Source of the DNA: Escherichia coli | Lineage (GTDB): Bacteria; Pseudomonadota; Gammaproteobacteria; Enterobacterales; Enterobacteriaceae | Direction: 5' to 3' (one strand) | Assembly: GCF_002854065.1 (NCBI RefSeq) | Contig: NZ_CP024147.1 | Length of the DNA stretch: 64,000 nt | In this document: positions 7,389 through 41,836 of the stretch, piece by piece | How the letters are laid out: each line of letters opens with the position of its first letter | Position numbering within the stretch: the first letter of the stretch is position 1 | Notes under the pieces: generated by a model | The model's database searches: none | The model's input: the letters and a program-made list of their open reading frames with translations, nothing else | What the model was told of the DNA's origin: nothing | Made by a program: the position numbers and the translations under genes

Positions 7389-8399
7389 TTAGCGACGGAA
7401 ATCAATCACCATACGGGCACGGATTTTGCCTTCTTCCATCTCGGTAAAGATGGTGTTGATGTCCGCTAACGGACGCAGGGCGACTTTCGGCACCACTTTG
7501 CCTTCGGCCGCAAACTGGAAGGCTTCGGTTAGATCCTGGCGCGTGCCGACCAGCGAACCGACCACTTCAATACCATCCAGCACAAGGCGTGGGATGTCCA
7601 GGCTCATAGATTCCAGCGGTAGACCGACAGCCACAACACGACCGCCTGCACGGACAGCATCAACTGCCGAGTTAAACGCCGCTTTAGCTACCGCTGTCAC
7701 CACCGCGGCGTGAGCGCCACCGGTTTTATCCTGCACAATTTTGGCGGCGTCTTCGGTGCGTGAGTTAATCGCTAAATCTGCGCCCATTTCGGTTGCCAGT
7801 TTTAACTGCTCATCATTGACATCAATGGCGATCACTTTCGCGTTAAAGACATTCTTCGCGTATTGCAGGGCGAGGTTACCCAGACCGCCAAGACCGTAGA
7901 TAGCAATCCACTGACCGGGACGAATTTTTGACAGTTTAACGGCTTTGTAGGTGGTGACCCCCGCACAGGTAATGCTGCTGGCCGCCGCCGAGTCCAGACC
8001 ATCTGGCACTTTTACCGCGTAATCGGCGACCACGATGCACTCTTCCGCCATCCCGCCATCAACGCTGTATCCGGCATTTTTAACTGAACGGCAGAGCGTT
8101 TCGTTACCACTGTTACAGTATTCGCAATGACCGCATCCTTCGTAAAACCACGCCACGCTGGCACGATCGCCTGGTTTTAATGAAGTAACACCAGGGCCAA
8201 CTTCTGCCACCACACCGATGCCTTCATGGCCCAGAATTACGCCAGTTTTGTCACCAAAATCGCCATTCTTAACATGAAGATCGGTATGACATACACCACA
8301 ACACTCCATTTTCAGCAGGGCTTCGCCATGTTTCAGTGAGCGCAGTGTTTTATCCGTAACGTCAACATGATGATCCTTCGTAACAACTGCAGCCTTCAT
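7389..8399 (-). CDS. adhP: Zn-dependent alcohol dehydrogenase, propanol-preferring
   Basis: Start taken at [11 protein letters not shown] (336 aa). GHEGIGVV and CGHCEYC zinc-ADH motifs. Confidence 0.9.
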
Positions 8400-8532
8400 A
8401 GTTCCTCCTTTTCGGATGATGTTCTGCATAGCAGGTGAGGCAAATGAGATTTATTCGCCACTACCCAGTATGGATGAGATCTGAAAAAGGGAGAGGGAAA
8501 TAGCCCGGTAGCCTTCACTACCGGGCGCAGGC

Positions 8533-11672: not shown

Positions 11673-12599
11673 CTACAGCGCCCGCCAGCACCGGAGCTCA
11701 CGTCCGTCCTCCCTTATTGCTAATGATTGCCGGACTTCGCATCCGCTGGTTGCAAGGGGGCAACGTTCGCGGAAAAAACAGCCTTGCGGCAACGTGCGGT
11801 TTCCCGGCAGTTCCGTTTTACGTAATGCCCATTCTTCCTCCAGCGGTTTATCAATGGCGGGGAGGGAGTCCAGCAATAATCGGGTGTACGGATGTGCCGG
11901 AGCCGTCAGTACCTGTTGCGCGTCGCCCAGTTCTACAATCTGCCCGAGATACATCACCGCTACCCGATCGCTCATATGACGAATCACCGAGACATTGTGT
12001 GAGATCAGCACATAGGTCAGCCTGCGATTTACCTGTAGCGTTATCAGTAAATTGAGGATCTGCGCCTGCACGGAGATATCCAGCGCCGAGGTTGGCTCAT
12101 CAAGCACAATCACGTCAGGCTGCGAAGAGAGTGCTCTGGCAATGGCGATGCGTTGCCGCTGCCCGCCGGAGAACGCATGAGGCAGGCGGTCGAGATACTC
12201 CGGACGAATACCCACCTGCACAGCCAGCTCCTCTGCCAACGCTCGCCGCTGTTGTTCACTACTACGCTTAGCTATCCAGAGCGGTTCTGTGATGATGCGC
12301 CACACCGGTAAGCGCGGATTGAGCGAAGAGAGCGGGTCCTGAAACACCATCTGCATAATGCGTTGTGAGCCAGAACGGATGTACTGCCCGTGGCTCGGTT
12401 GCAGCATACCCATTAAAAGCTGTGCGAGGGTGCTTTTGCCGCAGCCTGACTCGCCGACGATCCCTAAGGTTTCACCACGGCGGATCTGTAAATCAATACC
12501 ATTAATGGCATGAACATGTTCCGTAGTTTTACCAAGCCAGTTTTTACGGGCCGGGAAATTGATATGGACGTCGCGTAACGTTAATAACGTGTCAGACAC
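11673..12599 (-). CDS. ddpF: D,D-dipeptide ABC transporter ATP-binding protein
   Basis: 308 aa; Walker A GESGCGKST and signature LSGGQRQR. Confidence 0.85.
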   Translation of the reverse strand: MSDTLLTLRDVHINFPARKNWLGKTTEHVHAINGIDLQIRRGETLGIVGESGCGKSTLAQLLMGMLQPSHGQYIRSGSQRIMQMVFQDPLSSLNPRLPVWRIITEPLWIAKRSSEQQRRALAEELAVQVGIRPEYLDRLPHAFSGGQRQRIAIARALSSQPDVIVLDEPTSALDISVQAQILNLLITLQVNRRLTYVLISHNVSVIRHMSDRVAVMYLGQIVELGDAQQVLTAPAHPYTRLLLDSLPAIDKPLEEEWALRKTELPGNRTLPQGCFFRERCPLATSGCEVRQSLAIREDGRELRCWRAL

Positions 12600-13578
12600 T
12601 TATGACCTCCTGCTGCGGATACCAACAGGCGCAGCGCTGGTTGTTGTCACCACACGCTGTCAGCGCCGGGACGTTTTCACACTGTGCACCTGCCGCATAG
12701 CAACGATCGCGAAAAGCGCAGCCGTCAGGCAAATGGGTGAGGTTTGGTACCGTCCCTGGAATGGCGGGTAATGGCTGGCGTGGTACTCCATGTTCTGGTG
12801 CGCATTGCAGCAAACCAATGGTATACGGATGCCGGGGATGATGGATAACGTCTGCCGTCACGCCGCTTTCAATTACGCTTCCGGCATACATCACGTAAAC
12901 GCTATCGCACAGTTGCGACACCACGGCCATATCATGGCTGATGAACAGTACCGCAGTTCCACTAGCGCGGGCTTTATGTTTAAGCAAACGCAGTACCTGC
13001 AACTGTACCGTGACGTCCAGCGCCGTAGTCGGTTCGTCGGCAATAATCAATTGCGGCTCGCAGGAGAATGCCAGCGCAATCATTACCCGCTGGCGCATAC
13101 CACCTGAAAGCTCAAACGGATAGCGCGACATAACTTCCACGGCATCCGGGATTTGCATCTCTTCCAGCAGGGCAATCGCTTTAGCTCTGGCTTCCCGACG
13201 ACTTATTGGTTGATGATGGCGGATCACGTCCATCATCTGAAGACCTATTCGACGTGTCGGATTGAGGGCGGTCATCGGTTCCTGAAAGATCATCGCCACT
13301 CGTGCGCCGCGCCACTGACGAAGCTGTTTTTCCCGAGCGTTAAGAACATCGTCTCCCAGCAGTGAAATCTGCCCCCGATGTACGCAATAACTGCCCGTCG
13401 GTAGCAGACGCATAATCAGCATTGCGGTGACTGATTTACCTGAGCCGGATTCTCCCACCAGACCGACAATTTCACCGCGGTTAATCTGCAAGGACACATT
13501 GTTGAGCGCGTGTACATCACCGTTAAAACCGGGGAAACTCAAATGCAGTTGTTGAATGTCCAGAACGGGTTGGGTCAT
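12592..13578 (-). CDS. ddpD: D,D-dipeptide ABC transporter ATP-binding protein
   Basis: 328 aa; Walker A GESGSGKSV, signature LSGGMRQR. Overlaps ddpF start by 8 bp. Confidence 0.85.
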   Translation of the reverse strand: MTQPVLDIQQLHLSFPGFNGDVHALNNVSLQINRGEIVGLVGESGSGKSVTAMLIMRLLPTGSYCVHRGQISLLGDDVLNAREKQLRQWRGARVAMIFQEPMTALNPTRRIGLQMMDVIRHHQPISRREARAKAIALLEEMQIPDAVEVMSRYPFELSGGMRQRVMIALAFSCEPQLIIADEPTTALDVTVQLQVLRLLKHKARASGTAVLFISHDMAVVSQLCDSVYVMYAGSVIESGVTADVIHHPRHPYTIGLLQCAPEHGVPRQPLPAIPGTVPNLTHLPDGCAFRDRCYAAGAQCENVPALTACGDNNQRCACWYPQQEVISV

Positions 13579-14471
13579 GACTGCTTTCCTCCTGCTTTCG
13601 GGTCAAGCAGATCGCGAATACCATCACCAAAGAGATTAAACCCGACGGCGGTAAGCAAAATCGCTGTCCCCGGAAATGCGCAATACCACCACTGATCGAG
13701 TACATAGTTGCGACCATTCGCTACCATCGCGCCCCATTCAGCACTCGGTTGTTGAGCACCCAGGCCAATAAATCCCAACGTGGCGGCCATTAAAATCGCG
13801 CTACCGATATCCAGCGATGCCTGCACGATCAGCGACGGCAGGGAGTTACGTAAAATATGCCAGTTGATCAGATGCCAACGCGACGCGCCAAAGGTTTTCG
13901 CCGCCTGAACATAGGTATACTGGCGTACAACTAATGCTTGCCCCCGCGCCAGGCGCACATAAAAGGGAATTCGCACAATAGCAATCGCCAGCATGGCGTT
14001 AAATAAACTCGGCCCGAGAGCGGCAGCCAGTGCCATTGTCAGTACCAACGAAGGAATCGACAGCATAATGTCCATGATGCGCATGATGATGGCGTCTGCG
14101 CGTCCGCCAAGCACACCGGATAGACATCCGAGTAGCGAACCAATCATACCCGCAATGGCGACCACCACTAATCCGGCGAGAATTGATTGCTGACTGCCGA
14201 CCAGTACGCGGCTGAACAGATCGCGTCCCACTTCATCGGTGCCAAACCAGTGCGCCGCAGAAGGCGGCAAAAGGCGGGCGGTTAAATCAATGGCGTTGGG
14301 ATCATGCGTCGCAAGCCACGGTGAAAAAATCATCATCAATAGCATTAATACAATGATGACTGCGCCGGTCACGGTGAGCGGACTGCCTTTCAGCATCCAT
14401 ACCAGTTTTGCACCGTTAAATCGCGTTTGTTTTTGTGGGCGTACGGCGGACGTTTCCTCGCTTAGCATCAT
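13575..14471 (-). CDS. ddpC: D,D-dipeptide ABC transporter permease
   Basis: 298-aa hydrophobic ORF of the DppC/OppC type; 4-bp overlaps with neighbours. Confidence 0.85.
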   Translation of the reverse strand: MMLSEETSAVRPQKQTRFNGAKLVWMLKGSPLTVTGAVIIVLMLLMMIFSPWLATHDPNAIDLTARLLPPSAAHWFGTDEVGRDLFSRVLVGSQQSILAGLVVVAIAGMIGSLLGCLSGVLGGRADAIIMRIMDIMLSIPSLVLTMALAAALGPSLFNAMLAIAIVRIPFYVRLARGQALVVRQYTYVQAAKTFGASRWHLINWHILRNSLPSLIVQASLDIGSAILMAATLGFIGLGAQQPSAEWGAMVANGRNYVLDQWWYCAFPGTAILLTAVGFNLFGDGIRDLLDPKAGGKQS

Positions 14472-15490
14472 TCACCACCTCCACGTCCGATACGCGGATC
14501 AATCCACAAATAGAGCAAATCCACCACCAGGTTGACCAGCACATAAGCAAATGAAACCACGACGGCAAAGCCCATCACTGCCGGGAAGTCGAGCGCCTGT
14601 ATTGATGTTACTACCCATGCCCCCATTCCGGGCCAGGCAAAAACGGTTTCGGTGAGCACTGCGCCATACAACAAATCGCCCAGCGCCAGACCCAATACGG
14701 TAATCGATGGGATCAACGCATTGGGTAGCGCATAACATAAAACGATATACCAGCCGGGCAAGCCGCTGGCCCGGGCGGTACGAATGTAGTCTTCACTCAA
14801 TTGTTCCAGCATCGCTGAGCGGATCTGGCGAGCGACAATTCCCAGGTGAACGAACGCCAGCGTTAATGCCGGTAAGATGAGATGTTGCAACGCATTGAAG
14901 AAGACTTCACTGTTGCCTTCAAGCAACGCATCGAGCAGATAAAAGCCGGTAACGTGCGTTGGTGGATCCAGCCAGTCATCAAGCCTTCCGCCGCCGGGAA
15001 GTATTTGCAGATGACCATAAAACAGCACAATGACGCCCAGCCCAAGCCAGAACGCAGGTGTGGAGATTCCGGTAATGGCCATTATTCGCACCAGATGATC
15101 CAGCCAGCGATTTCGCCAGACTGCAGAGAGTATGCCCAGCGGGATGCCAATCAAGAGTGCCAGCAGCAGGACACAAAAAGCCAGCTCCAGCGTCGCCGGG
15201 AAAAATATACGCAACTCTTCCAGCACCGGACGCCCGGTACGAATGGATGTCCCCAGGTCACCATGAAACAGATCGCTGACGTAGCGGTAAAACTGTACGT
15301 ACAGTGGCTGGTCCAGCCCCAGTTGCTGGCGAATATTTTCCACGATAGCATCGCTGGCGCGGTCACCTGCCAATAACCGCGCCGGATCGCCGGGGATCAG
15401 ATGCGAGATAATAAACGTAATCACACAGACCCCCGCCATCACGAGCACCAGCCCCCAACAGCGTTGGCGTAAAATACTCCAGAAGGTCAC
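14468..15490 (-). CDS. ddpB: D,D-dipeptide ABC transporter permease
   Basis: 340-aa hydrophobic ORF of the DppB/OppB type. Confidence 0.85.
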   Translation of the reverse strand: MTFWSILRQRCWGLVLVMAGVCVITFIISHLIPGDPARLLAGDRASDAIVENIRQQLGLDQPLYVQFYRYVSDLFHGDLGTSIRTGRPVLEELRIFFPATLELAFCVLLLALLIGIPLGILSAVWRNRWLDHLVRIMAITGISTPAFWLGLGVIVLFYGHLQILPGGGRLDDWLDPPTHVTGFYLLDALLEGNSEVFFNALQHLILPALTLAFVHLGIVARQIRSAMLEQLSEDYIRTARASGLPGWYIVLCYALPNALIPSITVLGLALGDLLYGAVLTETVFAWPGMGAWVVTSIQALDFPAVMGFAVVVSFAYVLVNLVVDLLYLWIDPRIGRGGGE

Positions 15491-15491
15491 G

Positions 15492-17042
15492 TTATTTACT
15501 CATGGTATTGATATTGAAGACCTGTTCCAGCATGGGATTGAACACAAAGCCTTTCACCTCTTTGTTCATCGCCAGTTGGTAGTTTTTCTGGAACAGGTAC
15601 ACATAAGCAGCGTCATCAATGACGATTTTCTGTGCCTGCTGGTAGTTCCGGGTACGCTGCGTCTGGTCGGTGGTCGCGAGCGCATTGCGCAGTAACTTAT
15701 CAACCTCACTGTTTTCATAGAACGAGCGGTTACCCGGCAGACCTTTTTTGTCGGACTCAAACCAGTAATTCATAAACATATACGGGTCGGCAAAATCCGG
15801 ACTCCAGTTGCCAATCGCAATGTCGTAATCACCTTTACCCACTCTGTCGCGCATGGTGGCGTTCGCCAGCTTTTCCAGCTTCACATTGATGCCCAGCTTG
15901 TTGAGACTGGATTGTGTCGCTAGAGCAATAGGCTCCCAGTTCGGATCATTATCAGAATAGAGAAACGTCAGGCTGGTGGGTTTGCTCTTCACTTTATCCC
16001 ATTCGGCTTTGGCTTTCGTTTCGTCATGGTTGTATTGCATTGCCGTCGCATCGTAGCCCCACATGCCTTCCGGAATCGGGCCGCGCATTTGTTTTCCGTT
16101 ACCACTCAGAATGCCGTTAACCATGCCCTGATAATCGGTAGACCAGGAAATGGCCCGCCGCAGCTCCGCCTGATTAAGTGGCGCTTTGCTGTTATTCAGA
16201 TACAGATAGGTGACGCGCAGTGACGGATACTCTGCCACATTGACTTTATTTTCCTACTTCAGGGCGTTGAGTTGATCCACCGGCAGCGCATCGGCAATGT
16301 CAATGTCGCCACGGGAGAGCTGCAGGCGACGGGAGGCACTTTCACCGATAATTTTTACCGATACTCGCTTAAAGTTCGGTTTATTGCCGGGGTAATGCGG
16401 ATTTGGCACCAGAACTAATTGCTGACCTTTTTGCCAGCTTTTCAGCATAAATGGTCCGGAACCGGCGGTATTTTGCGCGAGGAAGCCGCGGGCATCATCC
16501 GCCGCATGTTCCTTTAACACCGCCGGATTGATAATGGATGCACCGTCATTCGCCAGCGTGTAGAGGAACGGTGCGAATGGTTGGCTAAGGGTAAACTTCA
16601 CCGTATGTTCGTCGGGAGCATCAATCTTTAAATCTTTGGGAAATGCTTCTGCTGGCCCCTGGCCGATTTTTAGTAGCCGCTCAAAAGAAAGTTTTACTGC
16701 TTCGGCAGTGACAGGTGTGCCATCGGCAAATTTAGCATTATCTTTCAGGGTGAACGTCCACTCTTTTTGATCGTCAGACGCTTTCCAGCTACTTGCCAGA
16801 TCGCCTTCAACGTCGGTTGAGCCTTTATCACCGTCCGTTTTGTACTGAACCAGTCGCTGATAAGACGGGTAGGTCACCGTCCAGTCGTTATTATCTATTG
16901 TTACCGCCGGGTCGAGGGTTTGTGGATCGGCGGCCTTACCAATCACCAGCATATCTTTCGGTACGGCGGCGTGCGCAACCGGGAAAGTTGTGGCAAGGAC
17001 GAGCGCGAGCAATGTGGGACGAAACGATATCGATCTCTTCAT
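15492..17042 (-). pseudogene. ddpA: D,D-dipeptide periplasmic binding protein gene interrupted by a single in-frame TAG (codon 263 of 516)
   Basis: Track ORFs 16254..17180 and 15492..16238 are in the same frame, separated only by the TAG at 16254..16256 (…LDQLNALK * ENKVNVAEYPSLRV…). Signal peptide MKRSISFRPTLLALVLATTFPVAHA at the start; SBP family 5. Confidence 0.8.
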
Positions 17043-17055
17043 GACAGTTTCCTGA

Positions 17056-17637
17056 TTAACTGACGTGCTGTGTGCCAGGGGATATAAAACAAGAGAATTG
17101 ATCAGCGAGCAGTGGGTAACTCGCTGCCTGGGGTAATTCGAAGTGCCACCATTCGCTGGAGATACCGACAAAACCGCCACCAGTCATAATCGCATTCAGC
17201 AACAGCCGATTGCGCTGAGCGGCGGGCGGGACGGAAGGATGGTAAGCATGGGAGCGCTCGTGCATTTCATCGAACCCTGCGCCCATATCGAGGATGTTCC
17301 CGTGCTCATCACGAAGCGTCAGGTCGATCGCCGTGCCACGGCTGTGATTAGAACCGACCGTCACATCAACAACATATTGCGGGTCTGGGCAGGCTTGCCA
17401 CAACATCGCCTGCGCTTGTTGTGGGCGATACGCATCGTAAATCACCAGTTGTAAGCCTGAGAGCTGGGCGATACTGATACTTTTCGCCAGCGCGGTAATC
17501 GCATCCTTGTGTAACAGACAACGCGCTTGCTGATAAATAGCTTTACCTGTGATGTTATCAGCGCAGGCGTATTTCAATTCGATCTCCAGATCAGGGAAGA
17601 TTACGGCTAAATCAACCAGTTCGGTGGTATCCGACAT
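17056..17637 (-). CDS. ddpX: D-Ala-D-Ala dipeptidase (VanX homolog)
   Basis: 193-aa ORF with zinc-dipeptidase motifs (SNHSRGTAIDLTL, EWWHFE). Confidence 0.85.
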   Translation of the reverse strand: MSDTTELVDLAVIFPDLEIELKYACADNITGKAIYQQARCLLHKDAITALAKSISIAQLSGLQLVIYDAYRPQQAQAMLWQACPDPQYVVDVTVGSNHSRGTAIDLTLRDEHGNILDMGAGFDEMHERSHAYHPSVPPAAQRNRLLLNAIMTGGGFVGISSEWWHFELPQAASYPLLADQFSCFISPGTQHVS

Positions 17638-17680
17638 AAACGGTTCCTGTATAAGACAAAAATTGCTGCGCTTTCCGCTT

Positions 17681-17697
17681 ATGCAGATCTCATGCCA
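17681..17697 (-). promoter_or_regulatory. Sigma-54-type promoter (TGGCAT-N6-TGCAT) upstream of ddpX
   Basis: Minus-strand sequence tggcatgagatctgcat has GG and GC at the canonical -24/-12 spacing, about 45 bp upstream of the ddpX ATG. Fits the known nitrogen (NtrC) control of the ddp operon. Confidence 0.45.
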
Positions 17698-17894
17698 TGC
17701 CGGGATAAGCGCCAGAATGCTGGCTTAAAGTTATATTTTTTAACTTTTGATCAACATTTGTGCAGCGTAGTGCAGTTTTGGTGCAAGAGGGGAAGTTAAG
17801 GAAGGAATCTCCCGGAATCGTAGCTGAAATCACAGTATTTAAGTGACAGTGTCACGTTAAATGAAAACCCGCGAGTGCGGGCGAGAGGAATTTG

Positions 17895-20294
17895 TCAGAT
17901 TTTCAGCGGTAACACGCTGCTCATCCAGCCTGGAATTTCTTCGGCGGGCAGGGGGCGGGAAAAGAAATATCCCTGAATAACGCGACAGTGGATCTTGCGT
18001 AGCATCTCAAATTGCTCTTTGGTTTCGACGCCTTCCGCCACGACGGTTAAATTGAGGCTTTGCCCAATGCTGGTAATGGCTTCAAGTAAGGCAAGGATGC
18101 GTTTTTCCGTCAGACAACGATCGACAAAACTTTTGTCAATTTTGATTTCCGTTACCGGAAGACTGACTAAGCGGGATAATCCGGAAAAGCCCGTGCCAAA
18201 ATCATCTACCGATAAACCCACGCCCATATCACGCAGGATCTGAATGCGCTTAAAGATTTCGGTATCGTGTTCCATCATCATGCTTTCCGTGATTTCCACC
18301 GTCAGCTGGTGGCCGTCAATACCCCAGGCTTGCATTGCATCAGACACCTGATTAGGCAGTTGATTACTGCGAAAGTGCAGCGCCGACAAGTTCACGGATA
18401 ACGCCGGGATATGAATATTCTGGCTACGCCATTCTGCTAACTGACGGCAAGCTTCCGCGATGACCCTGCGCCCAATATTTTCGATTTCACCAATCTCTTC
18501 TGCGAGAGGAATAAACCGTGAAGGGGGCACATGACCATGCTGGGGATCGTGCCAGCGAGCAAGGGCTTCGATGCCGTACAGTTCACCCGTTTCTGCGAAG
18601 ATTTGCGGCTGGTAAACCAGTTTCAGTTGGTTATTGCTAATCGCTTCTTTCAGCGCTGCGCCTAAAACCAAACGCTCTTTTACCATTTCGTTCATCGCCG
18701 GGCTGAAGAACTGCCAGCCGTTACCGCCATTCTTGCGAATATAATCCATTGCATTGTGAGCAGTGGAGAGCAGGTAATCGCGGTTTTTACCCACGTCGTA
18801 GCTGATGCCAATACTCAAGGTAAGCGGGAAGGGTTTATCGTCAATCATTATCGGCTTGCTGACCACATTCCGTAGCTCATCGGCGATTTGGGTAATGTTA
18901 CTGACGTCGTTTTCCAGGCTCACGAGGACAAACTGCGTACCTTCGATACGACAGAGATACTGATCCGGTTTGAGTTTTTCACGAAAGCGATTGACCACTT
19001 CCAGCAATGCCTGATCGGCCCACGCATAGCCAAGGCTATCAATCACATCCTGAATATGGTCAACACCGATGAGATACACCACCGGAGAGACGGCTTTGTC
19101 GACCAGGTCATCGAGGTAATTGTGCAGGTTATTGCGATTTGGCAGACCGGTCATCGGATCAAATTGGATGAGTTGTTCAATATGCTGACGGCTTTTTTCC
19201 TGTTCCAGCGCCAGCGCGGCCATATGCTGGCTGATATCTGCCACGCGTTCGATAAAGGCGCTGGTTTCTGCTCCTGACGAGGTTTTAATTTGCAGGATCC
19301 CCGCAGGCGCACCATCACGCTGACGAATGGTCGCTGACCAGCTTTGCGCATTTTGAACTTCTGCACCGTGCGAAGATGACGCCCAGTGTATCGGCATCCC
19401 GTTGCGCAGTGCGAACAGCGAAACATGCGATTCGTTGAGAACAGATTCGATATTACGACAAATGATTTCCCCCATTTCATGAAATGGCGGGCTGCTGCAC
19501 ATGGCGGCGAGAATATTGCCTTCAAGCTGGCGGATCTGCCGTTCTTCGGTGATATCCGAGAAAGTCATTACCAGGTTCTGCAGATGCGCGAGCACGTCAT
19601 AAACCGGGCTGATAGAGGCTTTAATCCAGATTTTTTCACCGGTGCGCGTCAACAGCAGAAATTCGTCCTGATCGCGGGCGGTTTTCCATAGCAACTGTTG
19701 TAAACGAATGCGGTTATCGGCAGGGAATTCAGGAATGTTCAGGAGTGTATCGGGCTGCATACCGCTGGCTTCGCTAATGCAGTAACCAAACATTTCGGTA
19801 AATGCGCGATTGCACTGCACAATATGGCGTTCCGGATCGAGGACAATCACCGGTCGGTCGAGATGGTCAACGGCAATAATCAATTGTCTGGTCTGTTCTT
19901 TTTGCGCCATTTCTACGCTGGCATCCCGTACCAGCGCCAGGTAATAAACTTTCCCCTCGGCGCTCACTTTCGATAGCGCAAAACGGGTCCAGATTTTACT
20001 GCCGTCTTTTTTCTCCAGCTGCAGCTCCCGACTCATCCCCTCAACACGCGCTTTACCGCCTTCACGGTTATGACGAATGTATTCAGGATGCGCAGGACGC
20101 AAATCCCGCGGAATCAGCATATCAATGTTATTGCCAATGACTTCTTCACGTTTGTATCCCCAGAGCTTCTCTGCGGCGGGGTTGAAAAACATCACTTCAT
20201 CATTTTCGTTAATTAACACCGCACCCATCATATTTTGCTCAAGGGCGGGGAAAAAAATGCCATCGGCGGCATTATCCGCATCGGTTAGCTTCAT
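17895..20294 (-). CDS. dosP: Heme-regulated c-di-GMP phosphodiesterase (PAS-PAS-GGDEF-EAL), oxygen sensor
   Basis: Start taken at MKLTDADNAADGIFF (799 aa); degenerate GGDEF and an EAL domain (EALARW, DDFGTG). Confidence 0.9.
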   Translation of the reverse strand: MKLTDADNAADGIFFPALEQNMMGAVLINENDEVMFFNPAAEKLWGYKREEVIGNNIDMLIPRDLRPAHPEYIRHNREGGKARVEGMSRELQLEKKDGSKIWTRFALSKVSAEGKVYYLALVRDASVEMAQKEQTRQLIIAVDHLDRPVIVLDPERHIVQCNRAFTEMFGYCISEASGMQPDTLLNIPEFPADNRIRLQQLLWKTARDQDEFLLLTRTGEKIWIKASISPVYDVLAHLQNLVMTFSDITEERQIRQLEGNILAAMCSSPPFHEMGEIICRNIESVLNESHVSLFALRNGMPIHWASSSHGAEVQNAQSWSATIRQRDGAPAGILQIKTSSGAETSAFIERVADISQHMAALALEQEKSRQHIEQLIQFDPMTGLPNRNNLHNYLDDLVDKAVSPVVYLIGVDHIQDVIDSLGYAWADQALLEVVNRFREKLKPDQYLCRIEGTQFVLVSLENDVSNITQIADELRNVVSKPIMIDDKPFPLTLSIGISYDVGKNRDYLLSTAHNAMDYIRKNGGNGWQFFSPAMNEMVKERLVLGAALKEAISNNQLKLVYQPQIFAETGELYGIEALARWHDPQHGHVPPSRFIPLAEEIGEIENIGRRVIAEACRQLAEWRSQNIHIPALSVNLSALHFRSNQLPNQVSDAMQAWGIDGHQLTVEITESMMMEHDTEIFKRIQILRDMGVGLSVDDFGTGFSGLSRLVSLPVTEIKIDKSFVDRCLTEKRILALLEAITSIGQSLNLTVVAEGVETKEQFEMLRKIHCRVIQGYFFSRPLPAEEIPGWMSSVLPLKI

Positions 20295-20318
20295 GATTAC
20301 CTCTGCATCCTGGCGCAT

Positions 20319-39556: not shown

Positions 39557-41836
39557 TTAATTTGATGGTTCTAATTCAACCGGAATACTTTTATAGCCAG
39601 GAATGCCACTTAATGGATCGTGGTTATCAAGTGTTAGCATGTGATTCGATTCTGGAAAATAGGTCACCAGTGAGCGGTCAGCCATAGGGTAAATGACCAC
39701 TTTTAATCTATCCATGCGGCGTGAGCTGCGCTTACCGTCTGGCGTAAGCGCAATAAGATTAACTCTTTCGCCGTTTTTTACACGGCAAATTTTAGCTTGT
39801 TTAGCACTCATAAAGACCACATCTCGTTGACCGAATACCCCTCGATAACGATCATCCATACCATAAATCGTCGTGTTGTACTGATCGTGACTGCGTACTG
39901 TCGCCATGACCAGCTTACTGTTAAACGCTGAAGAGGGATCTTCTAACAGCCCTTTGCTGGTAATGAAATTAGCCTTACCTGACGGCGTCATCCAGCGCCT
40001 TTCAGCAGCTGCATTTATCAGGTGAAAACCTCCAGGATGTCGGATGCGCTGGTTATAATCGGCGAACTCTGGCAGCACAGCTTCAATGTCATTGCGAATG
40101 CGATCATAATCTTCCACCAGATACTCCCAGGCTACCACGCTCTGGGGTAGTGCTGCCTGCGCGATTCCCGCGACCACTGCACACTCTGATTTCAGCATTA
40201 CATCGGCGGGTTTTAACACGCCACGCGAGGCATGAATCATCGACATTGAATCCTCAACGGTTACCGCCTGCGCACCGCTTTTTTGCATGTCAATCTCGCT
40301 ACGTCCCAGAACCGGCAGAATATAGCTATGCCGTGCGGTCAGCAGATGAGAGCGGTTAAGCTTAGTGGCTACGTGTACCGCCAGATCTAATTGCGTTAAC
40401 GGTACAGCGCTCGCTTCCCGATCTGGCATTGCCAGTGCAAAGTTGCCCCCCATGCAGATCAATGCTCGAGCCTGCCCTGAACATATTGCTTGCATGCTGG
40501 CAATTGCAGCATGTCCAGGTGCTTGAGGTGGTGTGAAGCCATAGCGCTCACCCAGGCGAGCCAGAAACTCTGCAGACGGTTTCTCGGTGATACCGACGGT
40601 TCGGTCGCCCTGTACATTAGAGTGGCCACGTAGTGGGCAGATACCCGCACCAGGCTTGCCAATGTTACCTTTCATCAACAGCAGATTGACCAGTTGCTGT
40701 ACATTCTGGGTACCATGTTCGTGCTGAGTGATCCCCATTCCGTAACAGATAATGGTGCGTTCGGCAGCGGCATATGCATCAGCCAGTTCGGCGATTTGTG
40801 TCTGACTTAGTCCAGAAATACGTTCGATATCTTTCCACTCGGAATTGAGAACGTCACGGCGTAGCTCGTCAAAGCCGACGGTATGCGTTTGAATAAATTC
40901 GTCATCCAGCAATGAGGGCCGACCTGCGGCACTTGCAGCATCATCGCGCTCAATTAACAGGCGCATCATCCCCTTGAGCAACGCCATATCGCCACCAATG
41001 CGCACGTTGTAGTAGGCACTGGCCAACTGAGTCTCAGAGTTCGTCAGCATTTCAAACGGGTTTTGCGGTGCGGTAAATCGCTCCAGGCCACGTTCCTGTA
41101 GAGGATTGATGGCGATCATTTTCGCTCCCCGTTTCACTAAAGCGCGCAACGAAGTCAGCATGCGAGGGTGGTTTGTACCAGGGTTATGCCCAATGCAAAT
41201 GACTAAATCGCACTTCTCAAAGTCTTCCAGCAACACGGTCCCTTTACCTACACCGATACTCGCTGCCAAACCCACGCTTGTCGGTTCATGGCACATGTTG
41301 GAGCAGTCGGGAAAGTTATTGCTCCCGTATTCACGGGCAAAAAGCTGATAAAGAAAGGCAGCTTCATTGGAAGTGCGGCCCGAAGTATAGAATTCAACCT
41401 GATTGGGATCACTATAGCTTTGAAGGCGTGCGCCAATTTCATTGAAAGCTTGTTGCCAGCTTAATGGCTTGTAACAGTCGCTGACGGCATCATATTTCAA
41501 AGGCTGAGTGAGTCGCCCCGCAGCCTCAAGCTCGTGGTCTCCCCAGGTAAGTAATGATTGAACCGTATTCTCAGCAAAGAAAGAGGCGTTTACCTGCTTA
41601 TCCGTGACTTCCCAGGCGATTGCTTTTGCGCCGTTTTCACAAATGTCGAATGACGCACTGTGCTTAGGATCTGGCCATGCACAACCCGGACAGTCAAAGC
41701 CCTCTGGCTTATTCATGTCAAACATGGCAATAACATCCTGGCGTATATCCATCTGCTTACGTACTGCATTCGCTACGGATTTAACAGCACCCCAACCACC
41801 GGCAGCACCCTGGTAGGATTCAATTTTTTTCTTCAT
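39557..41836 (-). CDS. ydeP: Molybdopterin oxidoreductase (FdhF-like, acid-resistance associated)
   Basis: 759-aa ORF with an N-terminal Cys cluster and molybdopterin-binding domains. Confidence 0.9.

Follow-up and report, generated by a model that had tools for sequence, protein, structure and literature searches.

The DNA analyzed here, referred to as the window, is a 64,000-nucleotide stretch of the Escherichia coli chromosome with the gene order gadC, digH, dosC, dosP, ddpXABCDF, osmC. The 1 kb around the site of interest matches two RefSeq E. coli genomes at 100% identity; there, the genes are annotated as dosP, ddpX, and ddpA. The open reading frame assigned to ddpX matches the NCBIfam model NF007557 (D-alanyl-D-alanine dipeptidase equivalog) with 335 bits, against a cutoff of 176 (E = 1e-100). 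The features of the operon and its promoter are as follows.

20318..17895, minus strand: dosP (open reading frame; annotation)
17867..17885, minus strand: intrinsic terminator of the upstream dosCP operon, a GC-rich stem followed by a T run
17681..17698, minus strand: sigma-54 -24/-12 promoter element ATGGCATGAGATCTGCAT (weight matrix, identity to the published site, 12-genome alignment)
17671, minus strand: predicted transcription start, 19 nt downstream from the motif centre (17690), for a leader of 34 nt
17638..17670, minus strand: short leader without notable structure (RNA fold z-score 0.26; no Rfam match)
17637..17056, minus strand: ddpX, D-Ala-D-Ala dipeptidase, first gene of the operon (NF007557; annotation of the identical locus)
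17042..15492, minus strand: ddpA, ABC transporter gene, interrupted in this strain by an internal stop (16256..16254)
15490..14468, minus strand: ddpB, ABC transporter gene
14471..13575, minus strand: ddpC, ABC transporter gene
13578..12592, minus strand: ddpD, ABC transporter gene
12599..11673, minus strand: ddpF, ABC transporter gene

The terminator at 17885..17867 keeps ddp transcription apart from dosP. An Rfam scan of 17000-18200 gave no credible match.

Codon 263 of ddpA, which encodes the substrate-binding protein, is an in-frame stop (…LNALK*ENKV…) at 16254-16256 on the minus strand. The 201 nt around the stop are found with 100% identity in only 1 of 5,426 complete E. coli genomes, that of strain CUWW06 from wastewater in Thailand, where RefSeq annotates ddpA as a pseudogene with an internal stop. 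The operon that the promoter drives in this strain thus has a broken binding protein.

The first-pass annotation had placed a sigma-54-type promoter with correct GG/GC spacing at 17681-17697, about 45 bp upstream of ddpX. Both statements hold. On the minus strand, 17697..17681 reads TGGCATGAGATCTGCAT, that is, TGGCAT-N6-TGCAT (the reverse complement of window 17681-17697), and the stretch reaching one base further upstream, 17698..17682, reads ATGGCATGAGATCTGCA. The GG doublet lies at 17696/17695 and the GC doublet at 17684/17683, with the same spacing as in the consensus TGGCAC-N5-TTGC. The element is on the coding strand of ddpX, with 43 nt between its 3′ end and the ATG at 17637.

The pattern alone is not significant, since its counts are close to those expected by chance. 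The TGGCAT-N6-TGCAT pattern occurs twice in the 64-kb window (0.89 expected), and the sigma-54 consensus with at most two mismatches occurs 12 times (13.4 expected). Consensus counting cannot tell the site from chance and was rejected as evidence for it. We used a weight matrix instead, built from 134 other in vivo sigma-54 ChIP-seq sites (Bonocora 2015, Tables 1 and 2, PMC4591121), with the ddpX site omitted (leave-one-out) to avoid circularity. On this matrix, the ddpX site scores 14.8 bits, compared with a median of 14.3 for the real sites, and ranks second among the approximately 128,000 positions of the window. A score at least this high is expected 0.6-1.2 times per 64-kb window, whereas for the 257-nt dosP-ddpX spacer, read in the sense direction, the expectation is approximately 0.0012. 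Sequence and context are therefore suggestive of a sigma-54 site, while the decisive evidence for the promoter is experimental and already published.

Two other matches in the window deserve mention. The best matrix match of all is CGGGCACGGATTTTGCC at 7414-7430 on the plus strand (15.8 bits). It is antisense, inside the 3′ end of an open reading frame at 8429..7389 on the minus strand that corresponds to adhP according to the gene order of locus L082. Bonocora 2015 does not list this site in Tables 1 and 2, and neither adhP nor the 17-mer turned up in the accessible supplementary files of that paper. It could be a chance match or an unoccupied site. The second exact match to the TGGCAT-N6-TGCAT pattern, TGGCATTGCCAGTGCA at 40424-40439 on the plus strand, scores 11.4 bits.

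The motif is the already published sigma-54 promoter of the ddpX operon, and the annotation is thus correct but ordinary. Zhao 2010 (PMC2831329, Table 2) lists ddpX with ggcaTGGCATGAGATCTGCATAagcg at -60..-43, a sequence identical to that of the window, and reports that ddpX expression rose 2.7-fold 5 min after sigma-54 was induced and fell 2.1-fold when rpoN was deleted. Bonocora 2015 (PMC4591121) describes a sigma-54 ChIP-seq peak, OS16, centred at 1561149 with a fold-above-threshold score of 10. Its motif is again the 17-mer found here, with the motif centre at 1561153 and a predicted start 19 nt downstream of that centre, 34 nt before ddpX. The site was marked as predicted in EcoCyc and was confirmed by their ChIP. 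We placed the predicted start at 17671 from this motif centre (U00096.2 coordinates; window offset 1543463) and the distance of 34. In the accessible literature we found only this predicted start and no experimentally mapped 5′ end of ddpX. The 17-mer, the 26-mer listed by Zhao 2010, and the position relative to ddpX are all identical to those of the E. coli K-12 ddpX promoter (EcoCyc/RegulonDB; OS16). The promoter itself does not differ, whereas the window strain has the internal ddpA stop.

Control by nitrogen limitation, also proposed from the sequence, agrees with two further studies. Brown 2014 (PMC4066584) reports an NtrC ChIP-seq peak at ddpXABCDF in nitrogen-starved cells. In Shimada 2021 (PMC8743547), gSELEX with RpoN holoenzyme yielded the dosP-ddpX spacer, gel shifts were observed with NtrC and with RpoN holoenzyme as well as a supershifted ternary complex, and nitrogen depletion induced ddpX 104.5-fold and ddpF 2.2-fold. 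The primers of their probe map to window 17561-17970 (410 bp). The window strain is not K-12, and the published experiments are carried over by sequence identity: sigma-54 occupancy, NtrC binding in the region, rpoN dependence, and induction by nitrogen depletion have been demonstrated for the identical sequence. The precise positions of the enhancer sites, the geometry of looping, and the point at which transcription starts are inferred here. Taken together, we conclude with high confidence that the element serves the E. coli ddpXABCDF operon as its NtrC-activated, sigma-54-dependent promoter. This is textbook Ntr-regulon biology, already present in databases, and its confirmation adds nothing new.

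An additional sigma-S or sigma-70 promoter in the spacer, serving stationary-phase expression of ddpX, is conceivable, although we consider it rather doubtful; it would add to the sigma-54 promoter, not exclude it. Lessard and colleagues are said to have observed RpoS-dependent stationary-phase induction of ddpX in 1998. In a published list, ddpXA is among the RpoS-dependent genes of E. coli O157:H7, so that sigma-54 need not be the sole route of expression. However, this RpoS dependence could be indirect, and our scan of 17550-17950 found no sigma-70-type hexamer pair. In addition, gSELEX with RpoD holoenzyme (Shimada 2014) lists only an internal constitutive sigma-70 promoter between ddpA and ddpB (window ~15490).

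The sequence upstream of the sigma-54 promoter contains the following features, with the 17-mers scored against the published NtrC consensus TGCACCAnnnTGGTGCA.

17740..17785, minus strand: conserved upstream block TGCACCAAAACTGCACTACGCTGCACAAATGTTGATCAAAAGTTAA, proposed NtrC enhancer (consensus scan, alignment A1)
17785..17769, minus strand: NtrC-like 17-mer TGCACCAAAACTGCACT, 9/14, centre at -106 from the predicted start
17774..17758, minus strand: NtrC-like 17-mer TGCACTACGCTGCACAA, 9/14, centre at -95 from the predicted start
17764..17748, minus strand: NtrC-like 17-mer TGCACAAATGTTGATCA, 10/14, centre at -85 from the predicted start
17699..17739, minus strand: A+T-rich spacer between enhancer and promoter, sequence not conserved in the alignment

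The first-pass annotation had suggested looking for NtrC sites of the TGCACC-N5-GGTGCA type further upstream. A conserved cluster of TGCAC half-sites is present at -85 to -106, but perfect palindromes of this type are not. The scan found no good NtrC palindrome upstream of E. coli ddpX, the best boxes reaching 9-10/14. Their right halves are poor, whereas the left halves are good and are in fact exact NtrC half-sites (TGCACCA, TGCACTA, and TGCACAA). The three overlapping boxes thus amount to three TGCAC half-sites in the same orientation, 10-11 bp apart. Three same-strand TGCAC sequences within 30 bp occur only at this cluster in the window, with 0.045 such clusters expected.

The block is also strongly conserved. 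Of its 46 positions, 41 do not vary among Escherichia, Citrobacter, Enterobacter, Huaxiibacter, and a Pantoea MAG. In two divergent Escherichia, the promoter is unchanged and the block has 0 and 2 substitutions, whereas the adjoining 109 nt on its upstream side have 24 and 13. Alignment A1, which comprises 12 genomes (the E. coli spacer, Escherichia sp. E1V33, four Citrobacter, three Enterobacter, Huaxiibacter, and two others), contains just two invariant islands, the enhancer block and the -24/-12 element. The first reads TGCACCAAAA[C/G]TG[C/A]ACTACGCTGCACAAATGTTG..C...GTTAA (window 17785..17740) and the second TGGCA.G.....TGCAT (window 17697..17681). On these grounds, the 46-bp block 17785..17740 is likely the NtrC enhancer. 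The candidate is thereby narrowed to 46 bp, compared with the published 410-bp probe or 80-bp ChIP bin, which is a new element of the present analysis.

The 80-bp bins of Brown 2014 were considered for placing the enhancer and rejected. The NtrC peak bin at ddpX (1561101-1561181) covers the promoter and not the proposed enhancer. Judged against the sigma-54 motif centres of Bonocora 2015, however, the bins at glnK, nac, and astC also lie on the sigma-54 promoters. Therefore, these bins do not localize NtrC sites.

In the block of Huaxiibacter chinensis (locus L037, ~2060-2100), there is a 10-bp tandem duplication (CTGCACTACG twice). The duplication creates a fourth TGCAC half-site exactly one helical turn away, which fits phased binding sites.

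We propose that sigma-54 RNA polymerase binds 17698..17681 to form a closed complex, the occupancy of the site being published. Under nitrogen limitation, phosphorylated NtrC (NtrC-P) would assemble on the TGCAC block 17785..17740, about 85-106 bp upstream, loop over the A+T-rich spacer, and contact the closed complex, with ATP hydrolysis opening the promoter. Transcription would then start near the predicted position 17671, leaving a 34-nt leader before ddpX. The operon imports and cleaves D-Ala-D-Ala as part of nitrogen scavenging. The sequence between enhancer and promoter (17699..17739) contains no match to the IHF core consensus with at most one mismatch, so an IHF-assisted loop is unsupported by the sequence. 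Relative to Citrobacter and Enterobacter, the Escherichia spacer is shorter by 10-12 bp, about one helical turn; the centre of the proximal box is at -85 in E. coli, compared with -94 to -97 in the other genera.

The quality of the -24/-12 element is similar to that of the known Ntr promoters glnAp2, glnK, glnHp2, nac, and astC. With the matrix of Bonocora 2015 (Table 1, PMC4591121), ddpX scores 10.5 and the other Ntr sites 10.5-11.7. These promoters and that of ddpX are alike in being bound by NtrC in vivo under nitrogen starvation and in having enhancer-like sites approximately 100 bp upstream. Conversely, the classical Ntr promoters have two good 17-bp palindromes, whereas the candidate enhancer of ddpX consists of three TGCAC half-sites in the same orientation. 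Unlike those of the classical promoters, it is also rather near the promoter (-85 to -106) and without an IHF consensus.

To place the promoter in a wider context, species-representative genomes were scanned for DdpX, which gave 80 loci; the counts for other Enterobacterales are over 79 loci. The matches are without E. albertii, E. fergusonii, and E. marmotae. From the 400 nt directly upstream of ddpX, the sigma-54 site appeared to be confined to Escherichia, a reading that was overturned by the scan of 3 kb. In almost every other genus, a sense-strand sigma-54 motif lies 920-970 nt upstream of ddpX. Within this 3 kb, matches with 12 bits or more number 78 on the sense strand versus 19 on the antisense strand.

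The gene directly ahead of ddpX in 64 of the 79 other Enterobacterales loci encodes an RpiR-family regulator (for example, L004 2117-2986). The protein has HTH_6 and SIS domains and belongs to the RpiR/MurR family. Among NCBIfam models, it comes closest to SapR, a Burkholderia regulator in the literature, with 376 bits, below the cutoff of 500. All 64 loci have a TGGCA-N7-TGC motif at most 250 nt upstream of the rpiR-like gene. On the matrix, 60 of these sense-strand motifs reach at least 12 bits and the remaining 4 reach 10.5-11.6 bits, with predicted leaders of 40-89 nt. A strong motif immediately before ddpX is also present at some loci that lack the regulator, such as L039 (an Enterobacterales MAG) and L074 (Erwinia endophytica). 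A sigma-54-driven rpiR-ddpXABCDF operon is probably still intact in most Enterobacterales. We found no description of the sigma-54 promoter of the rpiR-ddpX-ddpA operon of other Enterobacterales in the literature searched.

NtrC-like boxes accompany these promoters. Between -200 and -60, boxes of at least 10/14 are present at 52 of 68 promoters, compared with 4 and 3 in equal-sized coding controls; for boxes of at least 11/14, the numbers are 22 of 68, compared with 0 and 1. Raoultella has TGCACCTTCTTTGTGCA at -120 (12/14) and Serratia TGCCCAATTGTTGTGCA at -133 (11/14); overall, the boxes of Raoultella, Serratia, and Pantoea score 11-12/14.

It could be argued that the block 17740-17785 is the operator of another protein, such as an RpiR-family regulator, and not the NtrC enhancer. 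The boxes match the NtrC palindrome at only 9-10/14, the block is best conserved in genera that have the rpiR-like gene, and the published binding data reach only the resolution of the 410-bp probe or the ChIP bin. However, the block is unchanged in Escherichia, which has no regulator gene at the locus, and its left halves are exact NtrC half-sites. Moreover, NtrC palindromes of 11-12/14 occupy the corresponding place in more distant genera, the block is at the usual enhancer distance, and the difference in distance between genera equals one helical turn. We therefore consider the operator explanation unlikely and favor the NtrC enhancer. As for the promoter element itself, a chance match without promoter function, with ddpX transcribed from another promoter, is extremely improbable: consensus matches in the window occur at chance frequency, a matrix score this high arises about once per 64 kb, and many of the sites bound by sigma-54 in vivo are not known to be productive (Bonocora 2015, PMC4591121), but the element is on the correct strand and at the correct distance in a 257-nt spacer (~0.001 expected), it has published sigma-54 occupancy, rpoN-dependent expression, and induction by nitrogen depletion, it is invariant across genera while its flanks have diverged, and no sigma-70-like promoter was found nearby (17550-17950).

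The published conservation scores for OS16 (Bonocora 2015, S5 Table) are 2.5 for Enterobacter, -3.9 for Raoultella, and 0.01 for Brenneria, which implies that the site is not conserved outside Escherichia. This result appears to stem from a comparison made at the position immediately before ddpX, which in the other genera is inside the rpiR-like gene. Sigma-54 control of D-Ala-D-Ala scavenging is widespread in Enterobacterales and not specific to Escherichia, which corrects an apparent "not conserved" score in the published table.

The rpiR-ddpX-ddpA operons of Citrobacter, Enterobacter, and other Enterobacterales share with E. coli a homologous enhancer block, the -24/-12 element, and ddpX and ddpA downstream. 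In contrast to E. coli, they have an RpiR/MurR gene between promoter and ddpX and a spacer that is 10-12 bp longer. Those genera also have conserved leader motifs, TAACAG...TGACAG...TAACAGCGAG, which E. coli lacks. In alignment A1, the homology of E. coli to the other genera ends a few nt past the -12 element. The 3′ part of the E. coli leader (CAGCAATTTTTGTC..ACAGGAACCGTTT) is similar to the 3′ end of the rpiR-like gene in Citrobacter together with the rpiR-ddpX junction. The local alignment covers L004 2959-3018, the last rpiR codons and the junction (aaCAGGAACCGTgcTATG), and its stretch upstream of the ribosome-binding region is short. A tblastn search for the rpiR-like homologue gave no match in the 64-kb window or in loci L002 and L003.

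Based on these comparisons, we propose that in Escherichia a deletion of approximately 0.9 kb, beginning a few nt after the -12 element, probably removed the RpiR/MurR regulator and fused the NtrC/sigma-54 region to ddpX. The present promoter would then be a relic of an ancestral, probably autoregulated, rpiR-ddpXABCDF operon, from which promoter and enhancer alike would have been inherited. If so, the Escherichia operon would have been left under nitrogen control alone, and the deletion would also explain the published "not conserved" score. The lost regulator would point to a second signal in the other genera, possibly related to sugar phosphates or muropeptides. What is new here, apart from the narrowed enhancer, is the membership of the promoter in a broader family of rpiR-ddp operons, whose regulator Escherichia seems to have lost.

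As a separate matter, the presence of the whole ddp unit varies within E. coli. The full dosP-ddpX spacer is found in 4,215 of 5,426 complete E. coli genomes, and approximately 22% are without the whole ddp unit. In strain CEA212U (locus L082, 5990-6200), osmC directly follows dosP. Similarity to the window stops at 17816, just upstream of the enhancer block, and resumes with a 62-nt remnant of ddpF at 80% identity (12164-12103), followed by 11661-11606. Given these breakpoints and the ddpF remnant, the absence of ddp looks like a joint deletion of enhancer, promoter, and operon.
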